Under the pieces are notes generated by a model, which saw nothing but the letters and a program-made list of their open reading frames with translations, was not told the DNA's origin and searched no databases. Shown in pieces: positions 28,738 to 64,000 of a DNA stretch of 64,000 nt. The stretch covers positions 115,546,397 to 115,610,396 of the forward strand of contig CM097887.1 of assembly GCA_044892525.1 (NCBI GenBank). The letters run 5' to 3'. Origin of the DNA: Schmidtea polychroa (taxonomy: Eukaryota). A program made the translations under genes and the position numbers. Numbering within the stretch: position 1 is the first letter of the stretch; each line of letters starts with the position of its first letter.

Positions 28738-30660
28738 GCGTTACCCCCAGTATAGAAATGTGTTAAGTAGCCATTGTAATTTCTCAGTTCTCATAATTAA
28801 CCACGACAATAATCCTTATACATGGAGTCTGTTCATCGATTTCATGTTCTTTCTGATCTATTACTTGGAATCACGATCAGAAAAAACATAAAGATCAGTC
28901 TTGTGAGAGTCAATTATAAATCTCATCAAAATAGATAAACTATCAGTAATTTTAATCTCAGTCACATGTCTTATATGTAGAATCTATTCATTATATGTTT
29001 ATACGAGATGTTAAAACAAAGATAAAAATCTATAACAAAACTTAATTTTATCCTAATCCATATCAAAAACTAAAAATTTGTAGCATGTTAGTTATTATAT
29101 TTTGTGCGTACATAGACATTGTTAGAACACCCCTCCTCCTCGATGCTTACATAACATATGGATGGTCCCAGATAGATTTTATAAGCACTACTATGAAACT
29201 CACTCCTCGCCACTGGATCATGGAAACATAACAAATATTTGAACGGGCACTTAGATATTTTAATGTTAAAAATCGATTACTTGATTTCTATGAAGATTTA
29301 AATGAAACTGCACAAAACATTGAACAAATTGTTGATATTTTGATCAAATGCAAATTAAATATTTCCCATTAATCTACATATTCAGCTGATAACACAAATG
29401 TGGATTTCGGTAAATTCCGTTCAGTATTTAAACTTCTGGCTAAAGAAAATCAAACCGTATTGAAACATTCCACTGCTTTCAGTGACACTTTAAATTGAAA
29501 AATATTTAATTATCTTCTCAAATCCTTAATATTTTGATGGGTTTCAAATTTATTATCCTTAATACGCTAATTAACTTTCTATTAAAATAGATAAAAATTT
29601 GAAATTAGCTAAACGAGTGAAAAAGGATTCTCAATTTGCATGATATTAATGATAAATAAAATGTTTTAAAAAATTGCATATCTATTGAAATTGATTGATA
29701 TTAAAAATATAATTTTTACTAAAATGATGCAAAGTTTGACTTTTCAATAATAAAATTTGGCAAATATTACAAGTAACTATACTTGAGGACTTTTTAAAAT
29801 TGTTCGGAAATCTATTGTCAATTATTTTGCTTGCTAAATTTTTTTAAATGGTAAATTACTATATTATTATAATAGATGATACTAACAGGATTTTTGTGGG
29901 GATCTCGCTTTAACTGACAAGGATGCCCATGGATTTCCTAAATATTAATAAATTCAGAAATCTTTTATAAAGTTGCTCTATCGTGACAAATTATACTTTA
30001 ATAAATTTTTAAATAGAAATATTCAATATTCTAACCGTCACTTTCCTCACATTCCATTGTTAAACAACAATTAAGATTTTCTTTGCAATAAATTTATAAT
30101 TTCATGTTTACTTTTAATATTTTATGATAATTAAAATAAGAAACAGATGATAATCTAATTATTTGCAGCTTCAACAATTTTATACATATAATTAAAACAA
30201 ATGAACTTGTCTTTTTTAATAAATTTTTCAAGTTCAAATGAAATTAGATTATTTGATGGATATGAAATACGTTTTATTGTATAATTTATTAGTTTAATAA
30301 AAAGCATTTTCTTTTTAAATAATTGACTTAAAATTTATTGTTCACGTTTCATCTATTTTTACTTTTTAAGATCGAATTTATTCAAAATGCAAATACCTTT
30401 TTCAGGTGTGATTTGAAAAAGTTATTTGTAAAAATAAATGTCGAAAGTTTGTGTTACATATTGTAGGTGTCTTTGTCATTCTTCTACAATATGGCTATGT
30501 CAACAGTCGTCCTTGATCTTGAAACGCCAAATTATTTTACATTTTCGATCAATGCAACACTTCTCGCTACCTACCACCTGTTTGAAAATGTTTATAGGGG
30601 TACTCATGGATTTTGAATCGACTCTTTCCTAAACGTCTTCATAATTATTGTACTTTATAC

Positions 30661-30810
30661 CCTCTGTGTGCCCATGGTGATAACCATGTTGGTGCAGTAT
30701 ACAATGGCTGAAAATCGATGAGCGGGTGAGCTCTACTGCTAAAACTACTCCTCATTGTATTTTCATTTTCGGGTTTTGGACTGACGATAGAAGGTCTTAC
30801 GTCATTGTTC
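30661..30810. ncRNA. Conserved structured element, copy C (probable retroelement 3' terminus)
   Basis: TGTGTGC-C-CATGGT-GATA-ACCATG-TTGGTGCA-GTATACA, then GCGGGTGAGCTCTACTGCTAAAACTACTCC and GATAGAAGGTCTTAC, homologous to copies at 45861 and 58281. Confidence 0.7.
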
Positions 30811-30826
30811 ATTATCTTTCCTCTTG

Positions 30827-31140
30827 TTAGATTATTGTCATGTATTCATTTAATTGGGCTCCTCGTTTCTGGAGGTTTTTCAATGTTATCTTCGGAAATT
30901 TTGCGCTTCCCTTAGTTTCTTGTTCATAAATGTCATTTTCCTTCCGATCGTTGGGTTTAGTAGTATATTCTAAAATAACTATTCCTTGAATCCTGGTGTC
31001 AGTGACGAACTCGTCAGAGGCCCTCCGAATTAAATCCAATCAACTGATGTTGAAGACTTATTGACATCCAACACGATACAAATTCTTGAGGTATCTGTAT
31101 GCCGTGAACGTACTCATATCTCGTGATACTGTTAAATAAA
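30827..31140 (-). pseudogene. Decayed ORF end upstream of structured copy C, possibly the C-terminal tail of a non-LTR retrotransposon ORF
   Basis: Stop-interrupted frame AYRYLKNL...LDLIRRASDEF...; resemblance to LINE C-termini is from memory only. Confidence 0.3.
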
Positions 31141-31522
31141 TCCAATCAATGATGATAATTCCGCTGTACCTATTAAAAGTACTCATGCATAAATATTAAG
31201 ACAGGAAACAGACGATAAAAGAACATAAAAAAAACTACATTGAATATAAAGATTTATTGAATTACTTAATCCAAAATTACTTGATCCAAAACAAGCTTAC
31301 TGCAATGGCAGAAACCGAAAACTGAGAGCAGGTTACACGGAAAATTTATGTTCAGACTTTCGTCAAATATAAATGTCTAAGTCAAAACAAGTTCTCGTTG
31401 AAATCACGTTTTTTTTATCAAATCACAAGTTTTTTAACTAAATTTTCAATCAGTATTTATACTGATTTTGATTGCATTTTCTGCTACTAGATCCAATCAG
31501 AATGCAGTGCAGTTGAATTACG

Positions 31523-31550
31523 TTGCACACACATATATGAGTGTGTGCAA
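31523..31550. repeat. Perfect 10-bp hairpin
   Basis: TTGCACACAC-ATATATGA-GTGTGTGCAA. Confidence 0.8.
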
Positions 31551-32289
31551 TATTTTAATTTAATTGATTTAAATAATCAAATTATTTTATTTTTATTCAT
31601 TTTAACAATTTAATTTTATAAATTTTATAATTTAAATAATTTTAACTAATTTTATTTTAATCTTTATTATTTTGTCAATTGTAATGGAAATTTTTAGTTT
31701 CAATTTTTTTAATTTATTTACTTAGAACATTTTCCTATTCCTCTTCTTAACGCATGCACTCATTGCGATAGCTCCTTCGTGTGTAAATTCGAGCCATAAC
31801 AGTACTAATTAATTTGATTATGGTCCTTCGTATGTAAATACGACCAATAATCCTTCTTAAAATTTCTTTTCATATTATTAATTATTTTATTTTCAATTAT
31901 TATTTTATTTATTATCCTTTTATTTTCCCAGTTGACAGATTTTTTCGAATGCGTTATTCTTCTCTTAACTATGTTGGTGATTGCAACTTCTTGCGTTCCT
32001 CGATTTTATTATACGTGTTTTATTTATCCTCAATGTGTTGTGTACTTTATTTTGTATTATTTGGTGTATGATCATAGATTTTAATTCAACTTGGTGCGGT
32101 TTTTATGCTATGTATTTCTGACTCATTAAAACAAACTCCTAATTTTCGGTTCTAGCTCAACAATGTGTTGAGTGATTAAGAACTAATGAAAAGGTGACAT
32201 ATATTAACTTCTCATTAATTCTCCGTTCCGGAATTTTGACTACAGATTGGTGGACTTACCTCTTCATCATATATATTTATTCTTTAGAT

Positions 32290-43350: not shown

Positions 43351-45860
43351 AGTATTTGAAACAGATGACTCTTAAAAAATAGGGAACTATCACTGAGAAA
43401 AGTGAGGCGAAGCTATTGTGTCAAATTAGATAATGGGAAAGCAGAATTGATAACGTGATGGTTAAAATAATTTTTCTAACAGAATTTAAGTAAATGACGT
43501 AAATATGTAATATATTACATCACATTAGCTAAAGGTCAAATGTGAATGTATGTAAGTTGAATATATTGCTTTATAAGTTATAATTATTTTAGATACTCTT
43601 CGGCTAGATTAATATTGCTTGTAGCAAATATTATTGGTTAATACATGTTCTACTTTAACCCATGATACTCCAAAACGTGCCTACTTCTAGAATTCTCATT
43701 TCCAAAATATTAACTTACCTGTATTGTATTTACTACTATCAAATGCTTTTGTTTTTTCAGAGAAAATACTCAATTTTAGCCATGATGTACTCGAGTTAAT
43801 GGACACATCTAAAATAAAGTCACCAATTACCTTAGGTAAAAGTAATACAGGTTAGTCCAGTCCGTTTACAATGCAAAATATCAGCTTTTACTAGCCTCTA
43901 TTACTACTTTCTTCAAAAATGTAAACCATCCAATCAGTGTTCAGCTTTTATAGAATTGCAATTTTTACAATAAAATAATCAATTTCTTTTAATTAATTAA
44001 ATAAACTGTAATCAGTTAAATAATTTTTTAGAAAATCTGTATAATTAGAACTTATTGATTTTGAGTCCTATAACAATAAAGAAAACAATCGAAAATAATC
44101 AATTAATCAGTGATAATTAATAAATGCAAATTAACGTAATATATTTGTAATAGTCAAAAAATTTGTTCAGTGTAGGAAGTTTACCTATCCTTGGTAAACT
44201 ATTTCTTTTCTAAAACATTAAATGTCAACTAAATGTCAATGTAAATTGAATTTGTTAAATAAATATATTTATAATCATATTTAAAATATTCAGAAATGTA
44301 ATTGCTCGTATAAAATGTATTAAAAATAAGGTTTGGGCAATATTTTATCCTTCTCGCGATTTCCATCCTATCATAGTTACAAGTGACCCCGTTGAAAATA
44401 TGAATTCATTTTGAACGCATATGCAAAATTTTATTACGCTACATGAAAGTTTTCGAGAGAAACTTTCAACTTTAATGTATAGAATTTAAAGTAATTATTC
44501 CATTAAAATAAGAAAATCATAAATAAATTTGCATTTAATGTAAAATAAAAGATAATTATAATATTAGAATTATAAAGGTACAAAACTTTTGTAAATCAAA
44601 TATTTAATAACTTACTGAATAAAGTTATTGTCATTTTGTCCACTAAATTTCATATACATACGAAAACTTGTAGCGACAATTAAAAATGTTAATCCTGCAT
44701 AAGCCAAAACTGAAATTACTGAAAAGCATATTAAACTGATTTCTAAAGTCATACAGGATAACAAAATTGCTGCAGTTTTCAAAGGACTTCGCCAGAGTAT
44801 TATGTCTAGAACTTAAAATTTTACATTTATATTAATTCTAGATTAAATAAATAAAACAAAATTTTAACTTGAAATCAAAACCAACAAACCAAGGTAATAT
44901 TAAGCATTAGTATTAACAAATTTAATAAGTATTTATTGTAAATTTAAAATATTGATTTACTAGGATGATTAAAAATTTCAATCTGGTTTCCAAAATATTT
45001 TCTATCTATATAAATAATGAGATAATTAATTGTTCACTATTGTTAAAATTAAAAAAATTAACGAATTTCATATTAAAATTAATAGAAAAAATTATAGCTA
45101 CTTTTAAAATCTTGAGTCTCGTTTTCAACTGCTGATTGCTCTGTATCAGAAACTGACATTGTAAAATTGAACTTGTTCGATTAAAAAAAATAAGACCAAA
45201 GATTTTAGCAAAATGTAAGTATAATACAAAATTTAATTGCCACAGTAAAACAAATTGAGTTCAGGTTATTGTTTTTTATGAAAATAATAAAATTTGATAA
45301 GCAATAAAAGAATTCTAAAAATTCGGGATTAGAGTTTTGAGCAATATAAAAAGATAAAACGTGATATTAACTTTAAGGTCAATTTGGAATTATTTGAAAT
45401 CTATTTGGATAAAGGTGGCATTTTTTAATAAATAAATATTATAATTTAGTCTACGACTATAGAAACCATTGATTTATAGTGTTCAGATTGAAGCTGCTGA
45501 TTTATTTTTGGTAATATGGTAATATGAATACTAAATCTTGATTCAATGAAAACTTTACTAGACCTAAACTAGAACAATTTCAAGTGAAATCTATGTGGTG
45601 CATCCAAAAAGTATTTAAACTCGTCAAGAAATAATTTTGTTTTATAAAAATGGTAGTTATACTTAAATATGTAATGATAATGAAAAGTGTTTTAGTTTTT
45701 TACATTATCTTTCTTTGGAAAAGAAATTGTGCTATTTTTGAGAGGAATCGGAGTTAATGGAGCTCATAAATGTGTTGGTTACCTAGAAGGAAGAATTACA
45801 CCATCCCATATGCTCAGGCAAAAATGATCTAGATAACCTTCATGAGTTGACAATTATATC

Positions 45861-46004
45861 CCCTTGCGTATACCCGTGGCGATGTAACACGTTGGTATTG
45901 TATACGAAGGTCGGAGTCTACCAGCAGGTGAGCTCCTATGGTAAAACTACTCCCGGTAGAACTCGCGGTGTGGATTCCAGAGTGCCGTAGAAGGGCTTAC
46001 CTCG
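45861..46004. ncRNA. Conserved structured element, copy A
   Basis: CGTATAC-C-CGTG-(9 nt)-CACG-TTGGTATT-GTATACG; GCAGGTGAGCTCCTATGGTAAAACTACTCC; TAGAAGGGCTTAC. Confidence 0.75.
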
Positions 46005-46454
46005 CTTCTTTCTCTTTAAACCGGCGTCCTGGTCTAAGGGACGTCTCTCCAAAATAGAACCTACTCTATTTGAACGTTTCGCTCAATTTTTACCATAAAA
46101 TTCAGAAAACTAAATATAACGCAAGAATTTCTTTCTCAATACATTTAATTGTGCTATACAACACATACAACAATCATAACAGGTGTTTCCCTCTACAGAT
46201 TAACGGATAGGATGTCTTTGTACACTTTCTCCGGGATGCGAACGAAATTGAATATGTTGCTACATGTCGCCCTCGGCTAACAGGGGGACAATATCTAACT
46301 GTAGCCGGGAATCGCTTCGAATATTGGCTGTTTCGGTAGAAACTATCCGGAAATCATTTATCGGAATAGTTACGGTGGTCGTTGAGACTTTCTCTTTAGA
46401 AGATTGAGCAGCAAATAGGTATGCCCCAAGGGCAGCGATAGTATCGCATCGCTT

Positions 46455-47018
46455 TTAATTCATCTCAGCCTGTGAAGGACGTTTTCGTTTCTTGGTATAT
46501 GAGATAGAATGATCCGCATTAGGAATCGGTAGCAACGCACGAACAGTTTCTGCATGTGTCAAAGATATACTATTGGTCTTGTACGACCCGGATAGAATTG
46601 GGTCTACGAGCGGTGGAAAGTTACTCCCATGTCCGCTACAACTAGATTTTTTCGCTTGAGATTCTCCTTCCTGATGATGAACGGGGAACACATTGGTCCC
46701 ATCTTTTATAGGGTATTCCCGGACTCTTCGTTGTATTTCTTCTTCCGAATTCACCTTGTGTAGAGCCTCAGACTGGGCTTTGATTGTCAGCCGTTGACAT
46801 CGGCTTTCTTCTAGGAGACTGTCTCGACAGTGCTCCAGCCGCAGTATTTTTGTCCTCTCTTCTTTTATTTGTGGTGGGGAGAACCACGTACACTCATAAT
46901 ATTCGATTCGTTTTTTCAGAGCCCCTTTGTATTCTTGGAGTTTCTTAATATCTGTGTTTTTATCTGAGCAGGAAAAACATGGTCGAAGATCTTTAGACGG
47001 CCGACTTGGTTCACTCAT
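46455..47018 (-). CDS. Orphan coiled-coil protein with TWFSP motif (187 aa from the first ATG); frame stays open 65 codons past the TAA, to 46260
   Basis: ATG at 47018, 1 nt after a candidate 39-nt intron (47058-47020); heptad-rich segment; C-terminal KKRKRP; homologous to ORF 58609-59079. Confidence 0.65.
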   Translation of the reverse strand: MSEPSRPSKDLRPCFSCSDKNTDIKKLQEYKGALKKRIEYYECTWFSPPQIKEERTKILRLEHCRDSLLEESRCQRLTIKAQSEALHKVNSEEEIQRRVREYPIKDGTNVFPVHHQEGESQAKKSSCSGHGSNFPPLVDPILSGSYKTNSISLTHAETVRALLPIPNADHSISYTKKRKRPSQAEMN

Positions 47019-48869
47019 TCTAAAAGGGAATTCGTTATAAGAGATTTGATCGACATACCACAACACAATTAACTATTAACAAATTCGATTTAGTGCCCAC
47101 GCGCATTTCTCCATTTTCTACATTACCATATCCCTTACACCATTCGTCGACACATTTCCATTGTACCATAATTTATGCGGGTGAAGATTTGATCAATGTG
47201 TATATTTAAACATTTTCCCACCGTCGATTCCTATATTTGAAAAATATAATTAAAGGGAAATCTAAATTTAAGTTGCCGCAATAGAATGTTTAATTTAATT
47301 TTTTATGTAAGATTCAACATAAAACAAAATTAAATCAAATTTAATTTGAAAAATCCTGGATCTTTAATTAAAAATTTATCCGATGTACGGTAAATAAGAA
47401 TGTCGATTGCTCGTAATTTGTGTACTTTCCCGTATCGATCGCATGATCGTCGTTATGTCATTTGATTCAGATTCATCAACCGAATTTTTCGGCTTAATCG
47501 AGATAATATCGTTTTACTGCAGATTTTGCCTGACAGCGTTTAATGTCAATATTTACGTTAACTTGTATGTCTTTAAAGAAACCGATGGACGTTTCAACTG
47601 AAGTCAGTAAATCAGTGTATCACTGGATTTTGTTTATCTCATTCAATATCTATGCCTGTGAAAAATCAATCACTGTCATACACCTAATGAGCGGAGGTTT
47701 GTCAAGATCAAAATCAATCATCATCGATAATGGATAAATATTTTTCTTAATGAATTCATGATTGCAGAGATTTTATCGCAGCTCATAGTATAGTTCGGAT
47801 TTTCTATGACGTCGAATATGAATTTCTCACTGGAATTAAGCCTAGTCAGCTACTGGAAGATATTCAGATGATATAGTCCTTGGAATTATAGATCTCGACT
47901 ACTGGATACTTATTGGTTCGAAGGAAAGATGACAGAAAATTCTCCACGTACCGGTGCATGCTGAGTCTCAGAAACTTTGTCGCAAATGAAATTTTCTTCG
48001 AGTTCTTACTGAAGTATGGATGTTATAGCACGGAAAATACTGGAATTAAGTCAGCATTACGATCCTCCTGGTTTATTGAACAAACTAACGGTTTACTGCC
48101 ACTCGATGTGAACACTGGAATTTAGCAATTTGTTTCGTTTTCCTGACTTTATTATTGGCTCCTCCACCTGCCAGAACCCACCTAAACACCACCGGTATTG
48201 CTACCGACCGTCTCTAGATCGTGCTGACCGACAGATTTACCGCACTCAAATTTATCAAATCAATAAAAGAAAAGAAAATTTGTTTATGAAATATAAATGC
48301 TGTGGATTACTTTATTTAATCAAAAATGAATAAAATAAATTTTACCCGGCGACCATGTCCTTTGGAATCCGAGTACGAGGTCCTAGTATTGAACCGTTCA
48401 GTGGTGGTTTTCCAAGTATACCTCATAAACATTCTAAACCTGACACTCGTATTTTCTCATCATATCCATCTGAAGTCACTAATAAGTCGAAATCCATACT
48501 GTGGATAGGAAATTTTGCAAAATTATGTAGTTCCTCATACTCGGGGTTCCCAGACGGCATCGTCGCCGGTTCCATGAAGGCAAAGCATGATTCCGTATTG
48601 AAGAATTCATAATTTTATTATAGCATATATACAATATTACTCATTATTATTGGTGCATAAAATGTAAAAAGAAAATCAAACCAATACTTTTCGGTGGTTA
48701 ATAGCTGGATAGCTGAATGGATTTATCAAATCTCTTTTCCCTAATAGTTCGATAAGTAATCGACGTATAATCTCCAATAGTCCCTTAATCGATGTCGTTA
48801 ATAGATAATTCATGAATTCTCGTTGATTGCTCTGTTGTCGTTGGCTTACTCCGCGTTGTTAGGTTTCCC

Positions 48870-49283
48870 TGTAGATTAGATTTTTTGAAGTAGTTGCTTA
48901 ACTGACTTAACGGCCGCTTTATATATTAAATTTTAACCAATCAAAATTAAGTTGGGTTGTTTTTTGGTTATTTTCTATATTTCTTTATTTTTTATTGTTT
49001 TTCTTAGCTATTGTTTTGTTTTATTTTGTTATTTTATTTGTCTTATTATATTTTTACTTAATTACGCGTATTTCTGTTGACTTTTGGTTATATGGCGGCC
49101 TATTTTTAGTTTTCTTTCTGTTTTTACTTAATATTTCATGTTTTATTTAAGTTTCTTATTTTTACTATTTTTACTAAATCTATTTATTGCTCTATTCAAT
49201 TATTTTATTTACTTTTTCTTTCCTACTTCTCCATTCAGCCCACAACTATTAACCGCTCACAATTATTCCGGTTCAGCCCAACA
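48870..49283 (-). repeat. LTR-like A-rich repeat starting TGTTGGGCTGAAC
   Basis: TG start and a possible CA end; start resembles TGTTGGGCTAGAAC of the 56.2/63.0 kb repeats; no TSD found. Confidence 0.35.
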
Positions 49284-49719
49284 AATGGATCAGTAGATTG
49301 GAAACAGACATAGACCTTCTTACGCATGTTTTTGAGAACCAAATGTGCACCACAGATCAGAAGTTCCGAAAGCGAATCTCATATTTTGCTGACACATTTC
49401 AAATTCTACCTAGCAACGGGTTTACGTGATGAGAAATAGTGGTAATGGAGGTTGTGATGGGACCTTAAGTAGATCACTCCATTCATCAAAACACCAGAAA
49501 CACTTCATTCATTTCGAGTGTGGTTTCATTGATAGTGTTTGATGAGAGTTGTGACTGTTGTTAGTTGAGCAGTAAGTATTATTTTAGTACTAATAAATGC
49601 TACTAACTATGAAGACTAAACCAAATCAACAACTACAATTCCATCAAACTATCACAACATCACGCGAATTTTAAGCAAGATTACCGAAAATTAATTCAAT
49701 CAGAATATTTTCTTTTTAT

Positions 49720-51660: not shown

Positions 51661-51876
51661 GATTGCATTGGTTTTATATGTAAGAGCATATTTTGTGCCC
51701 TTACAGAAGCTATCAGATTTGAGATAGTGACCCAATTAGATTGTTTTTTGTATTCTTATGTTTATCCATAATCCGAATTTAAATATCTGCATTAAAAATC
51801 AAATAATCACTTGTGTCACTTTGCGAACATTTTCTAAATTTCAAGGATTAAATTATTTTAATAAAGTAATTTCTTA

Positions 51877-52346
51877 ATGCTACATATACATTCCCAAAAT
51901 GCCACTATAGAATCCTCTTCCTAATGCTACTTATGCATTCCCATAATGCCACTATAGAATCCTTATGCTTATGCTACTTATCCATTATCAGAATTCCACT
52001 ATAGAATCCTTATCCTAATGCTACTTATCCATTATCAGAATTCCACTATAGAATCCTTATCCTAATGCTACTTATGCATTCCCATAATGCCACTATAGAA
52101 TCCTTATCCTAATGCTACTTATGCATTCCCATAATGCCACTATAGAATCCTTATGCTTATGCTACTTATCCATTATCAGAATTCCACTATAGAATCCTTA
52201 TCCTAATGCTACTTATCCATTATCAGAATTCCACTATAGAATCCTTATCCTAATGCTACTTATGCATTCCCATAATGCCACTATAGAATCCTTATCCTAA
52301 TGCTACTTATCCATTATCAGAATTCCACTATAGAATCATTATCAAT
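51877..52346. repeat. 47-bp minisatellite, 10 units, two variants in a higher-order arrangement
   Basis: Units start every 47 nt (51877, 51924, 51971 ... 52300); variant A ATGCATTCCCATAATGCC, variant B ATCCATTATCAGAATTCC. Confidence 0.97.
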
Positions 52347-53686: not shown

Positions 53687-56222
53687 CTTGATTTAATGAA
53701 TGCCGAATATAAATGGATATAATTGCAGTTTCTGCTTGCACTTTTTGAACATCTTAAAGACGCGAAAGAAGTATTAACAAATCCCCGAAGGAAATCGATA
53801 GAAGAGCATATTACTAATCCAAAACGAGTATTTTTCATGACCAGATTATCTCGATTATAAATTTTTTCTTTAGAAATGTTTTCATCCGCCTGTACCTTCA
53901 AATTTAGCTCTCAGTATTTTCATTCGAGATTCTACATTGATATTTGCCGCATATCTATTGGAAATGAATCAAAATAAACGCTACGAACTTGCTGGAAGAA
54001 TCACAGTAATATTTGGTATTTTTATAAAATTTAAACCGTTTTCAATAGGTCGATTGTGTTATTCCGTGCATCTCGGAAGTCCTTAATCATCTGACTTTTT
54101 CGATTAATACGTGTTTATTTTTGATGCGAAAATGTAAAATAAATTGATTTTGTTCTAGATTTTTTACTATTAATAATAGATATTATGAGAACTTTTTTTC
54201 CAATTTCACCACTGATTATTTTTTCCATTGAATTTTAATAAAATTTTAATAATTTTGCGTTCAAAGTGTCAATGATCAGAGCGTTGTGCATTTTACATTA
54301 ATTCACGTATTTCGCTACGTTCTTCATCGATGTGTGGCATTTTAATAAAATTGAATTTTAATAAATTTATTAAATAGATAGTTATTAAAAAGTAAATTTC
54401 TGTGAAACATCATTTTGAAAATTGAATATTCTATACTCCGTCTGTTTTCTATCAAATATGTAGTATACCATTATATTTAAGTCATACAAATTTCACTTAA
54501 TGTACGATGTTGCCAAAATACTGTTTATGATTTCACTTTACTTTCGCAATTTTTAACCGGAAATTTCCTGCGTTTCTCTGTTTCGTTTTCCTATTATAAA
54601 GGTGGCATCTTGTATTAACTGTAAAATTTAACGGGGATTCGCTCATATTTTCAGGTATTATTTGATGATCGTTATCATTCAAACTAACCGTTAATAATTC
54701 TTGGGTAGGGATCCGCCATTAATTTACTAATCTGTTAACTTCCACAAATCAGTAGTAATTAAAACTAGCTTCCAAATTTTGAGTAGGGCCTGTCGCTGAT
54801 TTTATTAACCCGCTTTCTTATGTTCGTAGTTAAAACTAACTTTCAAAAATTCGAGCGAGAATTGGCTCTGAATTTTATTTATTTGTCCCTATATTCATAG
54901 ATAAAAATTATCTTTCAAAAATTTGGCCAGGGATCTGCTCTTATTTTTACTGGTTAACCCTGATGACCTGACTTTGGTTTGCGCTACGGGCAAAATAGAT
55001 ATTACTGTTTCGTTTCTCATTGTTATTTGTCATAAGTTTAAGTCCATAATAGATTATATGCTTGCTTCCTTGGGCCCACTAGACATTGGGGAAACGAGGT
55101 CTTAGCGTACTATCATAGATAAAATAGTGTATTTTGAATGTTGAGTTTAGATGTGTAGTCTTCATGAGTTATAACATTAGCATAAAACGAAAAATCACTA
55201 CACCCACAAGGGCACCGGACGCTAGTGTGACGAGCTCTCAGTGTTATGTCATAATGTCTTTGGAATCACGACCGAACTAAAAAGCTCGGCGTATTACCCA
55301 ATCTTCTATCTAGTTATCGTTGCTGTTTGGCTTTCCGTGTGTACTGGGCTTACCTATTGCCGACAGCACGGACACGAGCGAGCTTCCCAGTTGTAGATAA
55401 CAGGACGGTAAGGCATTCCTCCCTCCACTGCCAACATTTACACTGACATAAGAAGTTTTCAGATAAACGGCACAGTAAAACTGCTTCCTTGAACTTTATC
55501 ACAATAATCGCTTTCAATAATCTGATTTGGATTCGACCCTAATAGATCTCTTGATTTCTCTTAAATTCTTCGTTTGCCCTACTTACAAAATTTTGATAGA
55601 TTTCCTCAATTTGTATTCTCCATCTCTTCGTCTTTACGTAATTTCGATTTTCTTTATATAATGGTATAATCCAGTTGATTAATAATTCACAGTCTAAATC
55701 GTCCTTTTGCGCCGTATATCAAATTTTCTTGTATTAATTAATTAACGTTTTCCTTTTTTTCTCATTCCTTTGCTTTTCGACCCTGATAACGTATTTGTGT
55801 AAATTCAATATCTCCATCAACCTCATGTCTGTTTTATTCGTGGCAAATTCAAATTTGAAAGTTTATTGATTTTCTGTAATTTCGCATTCTTCGGCATTCG
55901 GTTTTTGACTGTTTCACAATAAATTCCTAGAAATTATGACCTTTTAAGATAATTTTTTTACAACCCTAACACTAAGAATTACATGACTTTACTTTTCTCT
56001 TCGTAAAGATTAACGTGATTATTAGAAATTTATATCAGCAGTAAAAATGTCAGATTTACAATTTTGTTATATTTTTGGAGAATTTAAAATGTTCACGTTT
56101 GGCATATTTTCCATGGACAGTCATTCAACCCATCAAATTGATAGCTAAAAACCTTATAGTACAATACTAAAGTCATTCGTAATGGTTGTATTGCGGAGAA
56201 ATAACAAATAATTTCACCTTTG

Positions 56223-56970
56223 TGTTGGGCTAGAACTGAATTCTAGACTCACATCTAGAAACTGTGACGAAATGTGATGGTACACAACATGCAGATCCAG
56301 CAGTAAGCTTACTCAAATAAAAATAGATAAAAACACCCAGTAAAAAATAATAGAGAGATAACATACCCAAAAATAAAACATCTGAATTAAAACTAAAATG
56401 AAACACGAGCAAGAAGTATCACACGAAAACTGACTCAAATACAACAGAAAAACATAAAACCACAGAAATAAACTTGAATAAAGTTGAATTAGAAAAAAAG
56501 TAGAGAGCAAAATTCAAAAAAAATTTAGAAAATCTAACATAAAGAAAATTCTAGGCGAAAGACCGAGAACGATCAATAAAAATGGCGAAATCCATCATGG
56601 CCGCCAAGCGACACAATAAAGTTTAAGAAAATAAATAATTTAGTTTAAAATATAAAAAAAATCTTTAAAAAAATTCACGAATAACGACTTTAAAATAAGA
56701 ATCAGATTAAAGTTAATATGGAATGTTCTGGAAATGCCCAAATCCATCATGTACGCAAAGTTAAAAAAAAATAATTCAGAAATAAAATTTTAAAAAAAAC
56801 AAAAATTATGGCACCAAAATCGATAAAAATTAAGAATCGAATATTCTAGAATTAAAAAGAATTCTAGTTTGTTTTACTGCATCAATGCACCCACACATAC
56901 TGGCACACCGAAAACCAGGTATATATGGCGCCACATTTCGATTACATGTCACTCTTTATGCCAAAAAAAA
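56223..56970 (+). repeat. ~750-bp A-rich repeat; diverged inverted copy at 62270-62992
   Basis: Shared colinear anchors TGTTGGGCTAGAACTGA.TTCTAGAC, GGTACACAACATGCA, AGCAAGAAGT, ATAAAAATGGCGA, GAATGTTCTGGAA, CAAATCCATCATG, AAAAGAATTC.AGTTTGTTTTA, AGGTATATAT. Confidence 0.85.
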
Positions 56971-58280
56971 ATTTTTCTTTGTTAACGTAATCAGACCTAA
57001 TCGACAGATTAACAGTAAGGCCGATTGATTATTATTTTATGTTATTATATGATGTTCTTATATTTAAATTATAATTTATGATGTCTAGCGAGTTGATGAA
57101 ACGTTTACTTTTTGTTTTTGTATTAAGCTGCAAGAGTGACTGGAATCTTCGTGTCCACATTTTTATGCGCGAGATTCGAGCCAGTCTTGCATCCATCTAA
57201 TAAACTAACATCATCATTGTTGGATCCACAACCCTCAATGACTGCAGGTCCATGACCTGGCATGCACATAAAATGAAATTTCGGATACCAGAGGTCGCCA
57301 CAAACTACATGGTGCAAACTATAGAGTTGTGGGGTAATCTCCCCATGGTAGTTGGCATAGTCGTTACGACTTTGTAGACAAGCAAAATGATGGTAATTAA
57401 AAAGGTCAACTGACTGTCACATAACAATAGGGCCTATCGTACAGAACTCAGTATTGTCGGGAAAATAGGCAAATTTTAACTAATTCGACTCTTTCTAGTA
57501 AATTACATACCTAATATAACACTTAAACTACCTTATTTTACACGACACTAGGTATTGGTAAATGGGGAATTTATCCAGACTCAAAATCTAACAAAACAAG
57601 GTCAAATGTAGTCGATTAATTCAGTTCAATCTATTCAGTTCAATTAAAGAATAGGGCAATCCTTACAAAATTAGAAGTTTCTACCCCTTAATGAAGTCGA
57701 AGCTACTAAATAGCAATAATAGTTAGGTTCTTGTAGCTTAAAAGAAAAATAAAAAATGATTTATCTAAGTTATATTAGCTACCAAAATATATTATCTTAA
57801 ATAAAGTCATATCCAAAGAAATAATCCGAAATCACATTAGATCAGAATAAAGTGCAGAGTAGTTATACCACCCAGGTCATCTTCAATAGCTCCTCACAAC
57901 TTGACGTATCTCATAATTAACTTTTATCATGATTAACTCAACTTATATCAACTTATATTTTTACTTTACATTATTAACTCATATGGTTAACTTGTGTTAG
58001 TATTCGTTTAGACCATCAATATATCACTTATGCTACATCCACCAGCACCCATACCTATCCCTCATAACTTGCGAAAATTAATTTATGTCATATCCAAATT
58101 ATATTATTTAGGCGAAATCTATGCAACTACCACAACCCTCAACTTACATTACATTCAAACTAAAAAAAATAATATCATAAATGTATTATATTATATCACA
58201 TTTAGAAAATTGGTGGGTTACTGGTGGTTGAATGATTGAGTGCTGTTACCAGCGTAACCCAAAATACAACATTGTTTTTC

Positions 58281-58410
58281 CGCTTGGTACCCGTTGAGTG
58301 ATCAACGTTGGTACTGTACCAAGGGTTGAGTACTCGCAAAAAGTGAGCGCATCAACGCACTATAGTTGTCGAGTACTCCGTGGGTTCACGGACTACCGAT
58401 AGAAGGTGTG
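58281..58410. ncRNA. Conserved structured element, copy B
   Basis: CTTGGTAC-C-CGTTGA-GTGA-TCAACG-TTGGTACT-GTACCAAG; GAGTACTCG...CGAGTACTC helix; GATAGAAGG. Confidence 0.75.
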
Positions 58411-58608
58411 TGTCCGATTTCTCAGGTCCCTTTATCAAAATTGTTTTCCCAACCTTATGCACAAACTCTCATTTCCCAGGCAATCATAAACTGTACTAGT
58501 CATTATTTTATCACTACAAAACGTGCAGTATTTTAACAAGGAACATATTATTTGAAGACTACCACAATACATAAAAATACTACAAAACACCTAAAACCGA
58601 ATATAAGT

Positions 58609-59079
58609 TCAAACAGGCTTATTGGTAGGACTGGCCAATTTCGTCGCAGCTGCTAGTGACAAATTTGCTTGTCGCTCGTATTCGGCCAGTCTAGCTTTCT
58701 TCAATTTTTCCCGAATATTTCGGCCTAACCGCTTTCTTTTGGGTTTCTCTTTCGCGGCCGGGGGGTATATTGCTGCTAGTTCCACGGTCAACGGCCGGAT
58801 TTGGCTTATGGCGGCTCCGTGAACTACTTGTTCATTGCGTTCGGTTTTTAACGCGCGGAGCTGGAGTTTCAGTGCCCGGATCTCCATCTGATCCTGCGCA
58901 GCTTGCGTCTGCAGTTGAAGGACCTGCGCCACCTTCTTTTTCATATCCTCGGGACTAAACCAGGTGCTTTCTAGTTCCCGGCACCGTCCCTTGAGCTTGT
59001 CTACTCGTATGCGGAGCTCCTCGGACTGTTTTTGAGCTTCTGCCCTATCTCTTCGCAGATTTTCCAATAGTTTGAACAC
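58609..59079 (-). CDS. Orphan coiled-coil protein with TWFSP motif (exon, or ORF with an upstream in-frame TGA)
   Basis: GC-rich 156-codon frame with strong heptads, LESTWFSP and basic KPKRKR; preceded by acceptor-like TTTATCTAG; 12/29 ungapped identity to ORF 46455-47018. Confidence 0.7.
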   Translation of the reverse strand: MFKLLENLRRDRAEAQKQSEELRIRVDKLKGRCRELESTWFSPEDMKKKVAQVLQLQTQAAQDQMEIRALKLQLRALKTERNEQVVHGAAISQIRPLTVELAAIYPPAAKEKPKRKRLGRNIREKLKKARLAEYERQANLSLAAATKLASPTNKPV

Positions 59080-59288
59080 TAGATAAATTCAACGATTATA
59101 TTCTTGCAGCATACTATTCATTCAATTATAAAATAAAATCAATATTATAAGTAAACATAGTTTCGGATGTTAAGCACGCAATACACAAGATGATTTATTA
59201 AAAGGACTGAAATAATTATCACTAAAATCAAAGTTTAATAAAGTCACAACTGAATGATAATTTGCAAAAACGAAATTTTGACGATGAG

Positions 59289-59654
59289 TCAGTTCAGTCG
59301 CTTGCGAGGCCTTCCCCTCTTCCGCGGGGTTGCCTCGGCCTCTTCTAGGTCCTCCACGGTTTTTCCCTCTTTTTCTGCTTGGATTTGTAGCTCGATCTTC
59401 TTGAGTCGCATCTGAGCTGCTTCTACCTCGATGGCCGCTCGGTCGCGGGCCTCTTGCAAAAAATCGTTTGTGGGCTCTGTTTTTACCCACGCCGGAGCGT
59501 CCGGCTCCGGCCCACTCCTGATTACTGGGCCAAAGTTGTCGAGGTCCAAACCCCGATTCCAATCATGGATACGGTGCCATATGTACCGTGTACGGAGTCT
59601 GGTAAGCATCTGTCGGTCGGCTTCTTCGTGGCTATCGCTGTCAGAGTAGGACAT
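59289..59654 (-). CDS. Orphan 121-aa protein with short coiled coil and C-terminal AT-hook/NLS
   Basis: ATG 2 nt after acceptor ATTTTGTAG; ends TPRKRGRPRKRLN (RGRP AT-hook core); GC-rich. Confidence 0.7.
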   Translation of the reverse strand: MSYSDSDSHEEADRQMLTRLRTRYIWHRIHDWNRGLDLDNFGPVIRSGPEPDAPAWVKTEPTNDFLQEARDRAAIEVEAAQMRLKKIELQIQAEKEGKTVEDLEEAEATPRKRGRPRKRLN

Positions 59655-60594
59655 TTCTACAAAATAATAATCAAGCCCCTCTATACTGATTGAGATACGA
59701 CGTCAACCACAAGATTTTGTTGACCCTTTTTCCCTTTTAAAAAAAAATATTTTATTTTAAGACTAACATCTATAAGCTTAGGAGCAGTGGAATAAAATTT
59801 CCTACTTTATCAAAACAAACACAAAAAAAAAAAATTTCGTCAAAATTCGTTTGTTTAAATCAATCATTTCCATTCAAAATTTTGTTTACCACTGAGTGGT
59901 AATTTTAATTACTATTTATAAATTTTAATTTATATGTTAATAAAATGTGAATTTTTTTTTTTTTAGATCGTCATTTTTAGGCCACTAAATTCGGGCACGC
60001 TGGGGCGACAGGTACTAGCAACGAACTAAGCTCTTCGTCTGCTTACCTTTCCTTCGGTTGTGCTCGTTATGAGTGGTTTGCTCTACATGCAAGTAATTTA
60101 TTTGATTTTTTTTACTTCCTTATTTTTTAGGCGATAACATTAGGAACCTCGATCGAGTAAGGGGAATATATTAGCTTGGAGTAGTCTTCCCATAGTTCTT
60201 CCCAGGGAATGACATTTCATGCCCAATATTTGATTTGGACCCGCAATTTGTCCCTCGCAGAAAATTGGAAATTTTTCGGGAATATTTGTATTCTGTATGT
60301 AGGTAAATCTCTGCGAATTATGGCTTATTTATTCAATTGCATGGTTCGCCGGAGTCATCCTCACCATCTCCTGGAAACTCTTGATTGTCATAGCCCCGTC
60401 TTGAATTTTTCCTTAAGGTTTCTCTGGGGGGGGGTGTTGCTAAATATAGATTTTCAGTTAGGAACGTTTTTATTGGGCAAAAGAATTGACTCCAAATCTA
60501 GATATGGGGAAAAAATCAATAATTGATTTTTTGCTTTCCTAGTAAGTAATACTAATTATGATCATAACCGTAAAAATGGTGATAACGAGGATAA

Positions 60595-60750
60595 CAAATG
60601 ATCGTAGTGGTAATAATAATAATAGTAATAGTCATAATAACAATAATGATAATAATAATAATGAGAACAATAAGGATAGCAATAAGAACAATAATAGCAA
60701 TAATAATAGTAATAATGATAATGGCAACAATAATAATAATAGTGATAATA
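60595..60750. repeat. (AAT/AAC)-rich low-complexity tract
   Basis: Imperfect trinucleotide repeats. Confidence 0.85.
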
Positions 60751-60779
60751 TAACTTTATATTTTACCATTCGTATTTTG

Positions 60780-61460
60780 GCTTTCACAATTTAGGGATTC
60801 ATATTTTATGAGTTCGAGGGTTACATTTTGCACTTTACAGGTTTTCGTCTACGATTTTCAATTTTTTTATCTTACAGTTTATAAATTCATACTTTAGAAG
60901 TTCTCATCATACACTTTATAATTTATAAATTGTTTATTTAACATTTTACCATTTTATATTTTTTACTTCCTAATTTTCTATTTTCAGATTTATAGTTTCA
61001 TGGTCTACCATTTAGAATTTGGATTCTTGATTTATGATTATATGGTTTAAAATTTTTTGTTCAATATTTTACGACGTTATGTTTTCGACTTAATGGTTAT
61101 GATTTATACAATTATAGTCTACTATTTAGAAATTTAGATTTTTACTTTATGATTATATAGTTTTTGCTGACAATTTATATTCAACATTTTACGATCTTAC
61201 ATTTCAGACTTCATCGTTATGATTTGCCCTTTTATGATCTACAGTTTAGATTTTTGATCCATAGTTGTATAGTTTATAACTTATAATACTATATTCGGTA
61301 TTTTAGACTTTATGATTATACTTTACACTTTTAAAGTCTACAATTTAGAAATTTAGGTTTTTGATTTATAGTTGGTAGTTTTATATTCAGTAATTTACGG
61401 TTTTAGGTCTATAATTTATCAATATAATTATCTCCAAGCTATTATAGTTATTTATAAAAG
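60780..61460. repeat. Degenerate T-rich tandem repeat, ~115-120-bp period
   Basis: Recurring TTTAGAA(A)TTT.GATT.TT.A.TTTATGATTATAT.GTTT and TTCAA.ATTTTACGA. Confidence 0.6.
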
Positions 61461-61776
61461 TTATAATCAATTATTTATACCTTTAGGAATATGTTACAGT
61501 GAGAATTTAGATTCGGGATTCTTTTAAATTTATAACTTTTTCCCTTACGTTGGATTCATTAAGTCGGTGATTTATTCACAGGTCTATCCAAATTTAGGCT
61601 CTACTTAGACATAGGCCGAAGAATTTTACCATTTCTATTATTCCAATTACCATGGGCTCCTATTACCAAACCTAATTCGGCATATGTCCAAGTGTACCAA
61701 AATATTATTATTGATCAACCAACTACATTAATGTGCTTGCAGAATTGTGTAAGTTTAGGTATGAGCTCTACTCAAT

Positions 61777-62169
61777 TTAGGACCTTAGTGTGGAGTCGTT
61801 GTTTATGATTTTGAATGTGGATTTTTCATGTGTATTAAACGAAAGTCGGGAAGAATATTGCTTCCATGGCCCCACTGTGACCACTTCTACAAACCTTAGT
61901 GTTGTGTGCTGAGTCAACCATTTACGGTTGACCTTGAATAAATACAAAGAGTCAGGCGGAGGGTTTCCTCGACCTAACTCCATGGCAGGACCATGAAGTA
62001 GTTCGACCTCCGGCTGACCCGAACAAAAAGAAAGCATATAATAAATATCACTATAATAATGATAATGCGTGTCTGCATGTCCTGTTAATAACGATTTTAA
62101 TAAATTGGATGCAGGACTGAACAACGACGCAGGAATACCAGTACGCCGTTGATCACTCATACATCGCAA
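61777..62169 (-). CDS. Hypothetical protein fragment
   Basis: 130-codon, relatively GC-rich frame (GPAMELGRGNPPPDSLYLFKVNRKW); no family recognised. Confidence 0.4.
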   Translation of the reverse strand: MRCMSDQRRTGIPASLFSPASNLLKSLLTGHADTHYHYYSDIYYMLSFCSGQPEVELLHGPAMELGRGNPPPDSLYLFKVNRKWLTQHTTLRFVEVVTVGPWKQYSSRLSFNTHEKSTFKIINNDSTLRS

Positions 62170-62269
62170 AAAATTTTAAGCAAAAATAAATTTAAAATAC
62201 CATCTATATAATTAAACAATTAATATACAAATAAAGATCAATGCTTACTATCGATTTTGGAAATTTCGT

Positions 62270-62585
62270 CACAAAAATTTGGCATAAAAAGTGATTGATT
62301 GTGACTGAAACGTGTCAGTATATATACCTATTTAGTACACGTGTATGTATTGATGCATTAAAACAAACTCGAATTCTTTTTATTCCAGAATTTTCTATTT
62401 TACGATTTTGCTATTTTTAATGGCAATTTTTGTGCCATAATTTTTGTTTTTATTTTTATATTTTTATTTTTTAATTATTTTTCATTAATTTTACGTCCAT
62501 GATGGATTTGGAACGGTTCCAGAACATTCTATTTTACTTTTAATTTAATTTTTATTTTAACTGATGTTTTTATGAATTCTTTTTG

Positions 62586-62619
<34 letters not shown>

Positions 62620-62992
62620 CTAATTTATTTATTTTCCTTAACTTTTGTTGTTCTAGATAACTTTTGTGATGGTCATCGCCATTTTTATAGAATGTTCTGG
62701 GTTTTTCTGGAATGTTTTACTGTTTTTATCGTCTTTTAAGTTATTCGAGTCTGTTTTTTGTAACTCTGTGTTTATTTGGTTATTTTTGAGTTAGATTTTT
62801 GCATCACTTCTTGCTTTTGTATAATTTTGTTTAATTTCTTTGTTTATGTTTTTGTTGCTTTCTCCTTTAGTTAATATTGTTTATTTGATGTAATTTTAAT
62901 ATTTAGCTAAACGTCTTGCTTTTGCATGTTGTGTACCTGCACCTTTCAGTCACAATTCAAGTTTGGGTCTAGAAGTCAGTTCTAGCCCAACA
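62270..62992 (-). repeat. Inverted copy of the 56223-56970 repeat, with an internal poly-T run
   Basis: Same anchors as the 56.2 kb copy, on the opposite strand. Confidence 0.85.
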
Positions 62993-63347
62993 TAAAACAC
63001 TCGGGGGCCCATAAAATTGCGACCCGCAATTTAAATCACAAGATGAAGAAAATTATTTTTCAGAATACTTGCACTATATTACAAGTGCCTACATGCAAAT
63101 TGGGTCTACGAGCTACAGGGTCGTGACCTCAATACCCACATACATAAAAAGGCTACTATTATACTACATTCTACGGATGGGTTGAAAGATGAAGAAAAAG
63201 AACGACCGAGGTCGGTCCACACAAAAATAAAATTATCATGCTCAAGAATCAATGTTATTAGTCACAATCAGTCTCAGTCTTTGAAATCATGATTGTTTGA
63301 TAATGTTTTATAATGTCATGAAATGTTTATACTGTCGTGATGTCACA

Positions 63348-64000
63348 TTAATAAAATTCGGTTGTTCGGGATCTCGTCTCGATGACGGCTCTGGTTTCAA
63401 TGTTTGGGGAAGATTTGAAGTAGCTTGGTTGGTTCGTTGTTTGGACTAGCTGTTCTTCCATTGGGATACGAATACTTCTTGATTGTTCCTTTAGTTTGAG
63501 GGTTTTGTTTCTTTCTTTACTGGAATTGGGTTTGAGTGCAATCAGGCTCAGTACGGTGATGTTTATCATTAGGCTCGCCGCTAATAGGATCAATATTGTG
63601 AGGGATTCAGACTCTCTCGGTTCTATTACTTTGGGTTTGTTCATAATTTCTTTTAATTGGGTTGTATCCGCCGTTTCTGATTTTTCGGGCTTATTGAATT
63701 TGTTTTCTTCTGAGGTGACAACTTTCTTTATTGCCTCAAGGGTTTTAATCATCTTCTCGGAGTTCGTTGGGTTTTTGTTTATGGTAGTTAGGATTTCCCT
63801 TGTCATTTCTTTCAAGGTTTTCGTTACCTCATTTTTAATGCTGGGTTCCTCTTTGATGATGGAAGTTATTTTTCCTTTCATTTCCTCCAAAGATTTTACT
63901 ACTGTTTCGCAATTGCTTGAACGTCCATAGGCGGTTGCTGTTACCTGTTGTTTTATTTCCTCTAATATTATTACCATCATTCTCATTGCGGCTGGATCTG
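63348..64000 (-). CDS. C-terminal part of a helical protein with one transmembrane segment; runs off the window
   Basis: Frame open to the window edge; hydrophobic LTILILLAASLMINITVLSLIAL followed by a basic tail. Confidence 0.6.
   Translation of the reverse strand, partial: DPAAMRMMVIILEEIKQQVTATAYGRSSNCETVVKSLEEMKGKITSIIKEEPSIKNEVTKTLKEMTREILTTINKNPTNSEKMIKTLEAIKKVVTSEENKFNKPEKSETADTTQLKEIMNKPKVIEPRESESLTILILLAASLMINITVLSLIALKPNSSKERNKTLKLKEQSRSIRIPMEEQLVQTTNQPSYFKSSPNIETRAVIETRSRTTEFY

Follow-up and report, generated by a model that had tools for sequence, protein, structure and literature searches.

The window, by which we mean the whole stretch of 64,000 nt analysed here, is AT-rich and full of transposon remnants (hAT, Tc1-like and RT). 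Together with a reticulon exon, this content points to an animal genome. Two hAT transposase genes are found at 4598-6994 and 23055-24905, the latter with a frame of 616 aa that looks intact and has a Spin-doc zinc finger. Ten copies of a 47-bp unit form a tandem array at 51875-52343, and an isolated AT-rich 5.8S rRNA fragment lies at 54229-54336 on the minus strand, with no other rRNA in the window. The window also holds three long terminal repeats (LTRs), each with one copy of a conserved fold close to the same end (Table 1).

Table 1. The LTRs, the copies of the fold, their parts and the associated ORFs, in positions of the window
Feature	Position	Strand	Description
LTR1	45773..49283	minus	solo LTR, 3511 bp, inverted ends TGTTGG...CCAACA
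LTR2	58211..62992	minus	4782 bp; putative 3' LTR of an element running off the right end of the window
LTR3	~30589..32162	minus	about 1574 bp; probable solo LTR
Copy 1 of the fold	45861..46003	minus (putative sense strand)	P4 hairpin 45980-46003; T-arm-complementary word 45972-45977; middle domain; P1/P2 junction 45867-45906
Copy 2 of the fold	58278..58414	minus	P4 58391-58414; T-arm-complementary word 58382-58388; P1/P2 58283-58323
Copy 3 of the fold	30660..30803	minus	P4 30779-30803; T-arm-complementary word 30770-30775; P1/P2 30665-30703
P1 stem, copy 1	45867-73/45900-06	plus-strand letters	
P1 stem, copy 2	58283-90/58316-23	plus-strand letters	
P1 stem, copy 3	30665-71/30697-703	plus-strand letters	
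Single C after P1	45874; 58291; 30672		copies 1; 2; 3
P2			4 bp in copy 1, 6 bp in copy 2, 6 bp in copy 3
8-nt strand TTGGTRYW	45892; 58308; 30689		copies 1; 2; 3
GTGAGC	45928; 58343; 30726		copies 1; 2; 3
TAGAAGG	45988; 58400; 30788		copies 1; 2; 3
P0 of LTR1	45777..45838	minus	predicted fold; 11-bp stem, one U-G pair, 4 nt from the LTR end
P0 of LTR2	58214..58261	minus	predicted fold
P0 of LTR3	30597..30662	minus	predicted fold; weaker, pairing differs by strand
LTR1 ORF	46455..47018	minus	coiled-coil protein with a TWF.P word
LTR2 ORF	58609..59088	minus	homologous to the LTR1 ORF; long helices (predicted) and a basic tail
Second LTR2 ORF	59289..59654	minus	121 aa, terminal RGRP word
Outer ORF	63348..63998	minus	216 aa, open at the window end, hydrophobic segment; putative last internal ORF of the element
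C-rich stretch	63002..63012	minus	9 nt beyond the far LTR2 end, at the expected place of a polypurine tract; pairing with the tRNA-Pro primer site possible

LTRs carrying the fold

LTR1 has the TG...CA ends with a short inverted repeat that are expected of LTR retrotransposons. As for a target-site duplication of 4-6 bp, AATG flanks LTR1 (4 bp, at 45769-45772 and 49284-49287); in LTR3 the duplication is imperfect, ATGT fitting only if the motif-side end has lost about 3 nt; and none is expected for LTR2. The far end is common to four repeats, including a fourth that starts at 56223 on the other strand, and the far-end word TGTTG(G/A)GCT(A)GAAC closes the repeats at 62992 (copy 2) and 32162 (copy 3). 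On the motif side of LTR2, contigs of four public runs covering 57800-60500 have repeated DNA that starts abruptly at 58211, and low-depth flank contigs in runs X4 and X5 match up to 58210 and then continue in other letters, like an empty site; contig depth served for the boundary only, not for copy number. A Helitron or Terminon end is a poor fit to the TG...CA ends and the 4-bp duplication. A Polinton end RNA was likewise rejected, its ends and target duplication being different and no sequence look-alike being found.

The start of the fourth LTR (56223-58210, plus strand) is 67% like the first 660 nt of LTR2, and the element carrying copy 2 appears to interrupt this LTR at 58210. On the minus strand, the first 600 nt of the LTRs are about 50% A (48700-49283, 62400-62992 and 31600-32162). 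About 1 kb separates LTR1 from a reticulon exon at 44612-44812 (minus strand), and LTR1 may be situated within an intron of the reticulon gene. A GC-rich island at 55160-55460 opens with the word CTTCATGAGTT, found also at 45839 beside copy 1; the island has no match to the motif models (nhmmer, covariance model).

The host is an LTR element by its ends and duplication; with no gag or pol in view it could be Burro, another gypsy element or a BEL/Pao element. Burro/GYPSM1, giant gypsy-like planarian elements, are alike in their multi-kilobase LTRs and accessory ORFs, as described in an excerpt of PMC6431247, which gives Burro 25 kb of internal DNA and over 30 kb in total. LTR1 and LTR2 (3511 and 4782 bp) have the several kilobases that Burro LTRs, whose size is deduced, would have. 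In contrast to Burro with its giant polyprotein (gag, env-like, PR, RT, RH and IN), no polyprotein is linked to LTR1-3 here, the view extending to 216 aa of an unassigned ORF, and the excerpt (PMC6431247) mentions no LTR RNA structure.

Every sizeable ORF of the LTRs, like the outer ORF, is on the minus strand. The LTR2 ORF is similar to the LTR1 ORF (34% over 50 aa, E 1e-5), and a full HMMER scan gave it one outside relative, P0001 (40%, E 6.6e-22), a cluster of two unnamed proteins on short contigs; its AlphaFold model shows plain long helices (pTM 0.29). The second LTR2 ORF ends in a word that we take to be AT-hook-like and has no convincing Pfam match. Protein searches found no family or homologue for the outer ORF, and a word-index search no relative for it or for the two LTR ORFs. 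For these ORFs nothing was found in viral contigs, Pfam and PHROGs were blank, and Atlas matches were weak or none. A coding explanation for the motif itself was rejected because its conserved words fall in different frames in copies 1 and 3; the short minus-strand frames there stop before the LTR end.

Structure and conservation of the fold

The initial annotation described three dispersed copies of a shared layout (P1, single C, P2 hairpin, 8-nt strand, P1') with compensatory changes in the stems, and took them for a selected RNA (or ssDNA) structure of a new class. The layout is confirmed: the window holds the fold in three copies, with every stem in its place on the plus strand. So are the compensatory changes. 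Over P1, P2 and P4 all 51 of 51 stem cells are paired (17 hand-set pairs in three sequences), and both sides have changed in 9 of the 17 pairs (P ~1e-4 by permutation of the 3' letters, for three sequences only). P4 is an extra hairpin, missed at first and present in all copies, with 3 bp, a 1x4 internal loop and 3 bp. The conserved TAGAAGG that had been noted recurs in 3/3 copies, with TAGAAG as the P4 loop, and a GGRTTY word is conserved 2-3 nt before P4. The claim of a second helix around GTGAGC stood in part: the word is in 3/3 copies, but the enclosing helix of copy 2 is unlike those of copies 1 and 3, and the middle domain is variable.

A descriptor of the layout (P1 of at least 6, C, P2 of at least 4, TTGGTRYW) matches three times in the window, versus 0.03 times per shuffled window and a maximum of 1 in 200 block-wise dinucleotide shuffles. 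A spaced-word pattern matches three times versus 0 in 100 shuffles. Both were derived from the same three copies, making these comparisons post hoc. A covariance model, which the initial annotation had advised building, was run on the window with filters off and scored the three copies at 124-152 bits and the next match at 11 bits; neither it nor nhmmer found a fourth copy in the window. Matches of the pattern outside the window, in three viral and three metagenome contigs, are put down to chance, with the P1-C-P2 junction in 0 of the 6. The motif is not an existing Rfam entry: over the copies Rfam 15 gives no match at gathering score and nothing but junk matches up to E 10.

In 3/3 LTRs the copy is found 73-231 nt from the same end; the motif spans 95-231 (copy 1), 73-204 (copy 2) and 77-215 nt (copy 3) from that end, and a terminal hairpin, P0, follows it. 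The motif, at 64%, is all that blastn aligns between LTR1 and LTR3, and between LTR1 and LTR2 there is no blastn match at E 0.01. Because the other DNA of the LTRs has diverged beyond alignment, the fold is their most conserved part.

The proposal that the structure is kept by selection is borne out, as is its absence from Rfam, and with high confidence we regard the fold as a cis-element of the LTR end under selection. What is not borne out is a set of dispersed, free-standing RNA genes: the copies are a fixed part of one LTR end in a repeated retroelement family; the fold therefore belongs among the cis-acting leader structures of LTR retroelements. It is a so far unrecorded cis-element of retrotransposon LTRs, not a free RNA class. 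We found no published RNA structure or primer site for planarian LTRs; a description may exist in the original Burro paper, its supplements or Repbase.

Orientation of the LTRs

Two contigs of run X7 continue past 58211, and their minus-strand letters match 9 of the 9 start bases of the tRNA-Pro primer site, the primer sequence being that given in passages of PMC10993922 and PMC4587795. The match is 9 nt long, lies outside the window, comes from two contigs of one of the four runs, and stands 8 nt from the LTR end (4 if the LTR of the contig family is longer). P0 of copy 1 is predicted to form a perfect 11-bp stem on the minus strand only. Taken with the minus-strand ORFs and this hairpin, the primer-site match leads us to read the motif end as U5, which it probably is. 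Function is more likely to reside on the minus strand; the initial annotation had folded the other one. Within 660 nt of the motif-side end no AATAAA was found in any LTR. Part of the fold could be U3, depending on the transcription start. GTGAG was dropped as a splice donor, being antisense in the favoured orientation.

That the fold acts instead on the plus strand, in minus-strand strong-stop cDNA or in an antisense RNA starting at the motif end of the LTR, seems to us improbable. Two G-T pairs in P1 of copy 3 work on the plus strand only, and folding is more stable on this strand in each of the three copies, the z-scores being as good or better (-1.97, -3.65 and -2.38 for copies 1, 2 and 3, versus -1.57, -3.28 and -2.10 on the minus strand); with DNA parameters the z-scores are -4.0 for copy 2 and -2.7 for copy 3. 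However, the DNA z-score of copy 1 is -0.7, the wobble in its P0 favours the minus strand, and G-rich strands fold lower anyway. A tRNA-derived Pol III unit was not recognized in the copies: ARAGORN called no tRNA, and by eye the A and B boxes are incomplete against the consensus. With the plus strand as sense, neither junction has a primer site or a purine tract.

On the favoured strand, a polypurine tract is absent from the far junction of LTR2 (62993 onward), where 5 of the last 15 bases are purines (a share of 0.33, at one junction and in DNA that would be internal to the element). At this one junction the interval 62993-63032 holds a small hairpin and the C-rich stretch in the place of the tract. 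By eye, 63002-63012 and the tRNA-Pro primer site form 11 bp, three of them G-U, with the primer as given in a passage of PMC10993922. This pairing hints at 5'-3' pairing of the RNA and would leave plus-strand priming unexplained.

Complementarity to tRNA-Pro and other readings of the fold

The reading that we put first, tentatively and from complementarity of sequences, is that the fold is a leader-RNA platform that binds tRNA-Pro beyond the primer site to start reverse transcription. The minus strand would be the RNA, and the fold would lie in the 5' leader of the element, just before the primer-binding site. Once the tRNA 3' end has annealed to that site, the 5' strand that this frees (nt 5-11), the D-loop (13-18) and the T-arm (49-56) would pair with three unpaired words displayed by the helices.

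Three of the four conserved unpaired words are complementary to the tRNA-Pro 5' arm, D-loop and T-arm. The comparison was made by eye with human tRNA-Pro(TGG) from a passage of PMC12217144, which may not match the host tRNA; a search for a eukaryotic tRNA-Pro gene returned seven loci and 0 tRNAs. GTTGGT (plus strand) is identical to nt 6-11 of this tRNA in 3/3 copies, lengthened to CGTTGGT (nt 5-11) in copies 1 and 2, and is present in 0 of the 6 other full tRNAs of the PMC12217144 passage. With two G-U pairs TAGAAG can be fitted to nt 13-18. A 6-7 nt fit to the T-arm is seen for the word before P4 in 3/3 copies; such a word fits most tRNAs. The first two words are colinear with the tRNA, and all three are predicted to be unpaired or nearly so. 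The chance of three of four words finding a partner is ~0.007, a post hoc value from base composition that uses the human tRNA and ignores how common T-arm words are. GTGAGC has no partner in tRNA-Pro, and two changes in copy 3 shorten the tRNA pairings.

Extended contacts of this kind have precedents. Passages of PMC11181671 and PMC11251516 describe for HIV-1 pairing of the PAS, the signal for primer activation, with the T-arm and other extended tRNA pairings upstream of the PBS. The HIV-1 U5/PBS region is alike in being structured just upstream of the primer site and, going by the comparison made by eye, in having short words complementary to the primer tRNA beyond its 3' end, the T-arm included, but it has another fold; here the tRNA is tRNA-Pro, 5' strand and D-loop pairing is predicted in addition, the element is from an invertebrate, and the pairing is read from sequence alone. 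Ty1, Ty3 and Drosophila gypsy have bipartite primer sites according to passages of PMC5371799 and PMC1635307, that is, a short primer site plus further tRNA-complementary segments. The extra segments are near or after the primer site in Ty1 and at the RNA 3' end in Ty3 and gypsy, whereas here they would be loops of a conserved 140-nt fold inside the LTR.

It is possible, if on the unlikely side, that the fold serves as a signal for packaging or dimerisation, or as the binding site for a protein of the element (Gag or the LTR-encoded basic coiled-coil protein). For protein binding, the Rex/Rev-type response element is an analogy. Packaging or protein binding would suit the position in the putative leader and the helix-bulge-helix junction with its invariant unpaired bases, and would leave the likeness of the words to tRNA-Pro unexplained. 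The palindromic GAGCTC loop of copies 1 and 3, also in favour, is missing from copy 2. A homologous basic-tailed ORF lies 200-450 nt away in two of the three LTRs, likewise in favour, but no homologue of the coiled-coil ORF was found in LTR3.

We give rather little credence to a role in controlling translation or the formation of transcript ends; gag, for instance, might be initiated internally behind a leader that contains upstream ORFs. ORFs do lie upstream of the fold in the same LTR and on the same strand, and would put gag after a long leader; against this, the fold has no similarity to any Rfam IRES.

A self-cleaving ribozyme of an undescribed class, cutting the leader or making an RNA end, is a very doubtful proposition. 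The combination of variable stems with short invariant junction words over ~140 nt would be in keeping with one, and on the minus strand a pyrimidine-rich loop on a 3-bp helix resembles P3/L3 of HDV. As the initial annotation had it, however, the known small ribozymes do not fit, with no Rfam ribozyme model matching at E<=10 and no ribozyme core complete. A hammerhead core consists of CUGANGA and GAAA at a three-way junction; one CTGANGA is present, in copy 3 only and with no GAAA after it, and there is no Rfam match. HDV-like ribozymes also have no Rfam match and, beyond the P3/L3-like hairpin, no common P2, P1.1 or J4/2 C could be seen by eye. Twister, twister-sister, pistol, hatchet and hairpin ribozymes gave no covariance-model or core-word match. 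By eye, no pseudoknot is common to the three copies, and cleavage between the cap and the primer site would curtail the repeat that strand transfer requires. The location in a retroelement terminal repeat does have a hammerhead precedent in an excerpt of PMC6431247: the hammerheads of Penelope-like elements and retrozymes are likewise conserved RNA folds in such repeats. They differ in that our copies have no hammerhead core and sit in LTRs with integrase-type ends and a target duplication. Slighter still is the prospect of a new ribozyme in the U5 of a very abundant LTR family that also has no polypurine tract, which would mean RNA processing and priming undescribed for LTR elements.

Few LTR retrotransposons (Ty1, Ty3 and gypsy) have cis-acting RNA structures of which the details are known. 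The present fold has persisted in LTRs whose DNA similarity is otherwise almost entirely gone. Its occurrence in a repeated family offers many natural variants for covariation analysis. Should the fold serve packaging only, it would still be an unrecorded RNA family, of narrower interest. The absence of a polypurine tract, with a stretch complementary to the primer site instead, would raise a question about plus-strand priming. The platform reading makes a sharp prediction, namely pairing of three loops with defined parts of tRNA-Pro. If that reading is true, the fold would be to an invertebrate element what the primer-activation region is to retroviruses, and would serve as a marker with which to find and orient such large elements.
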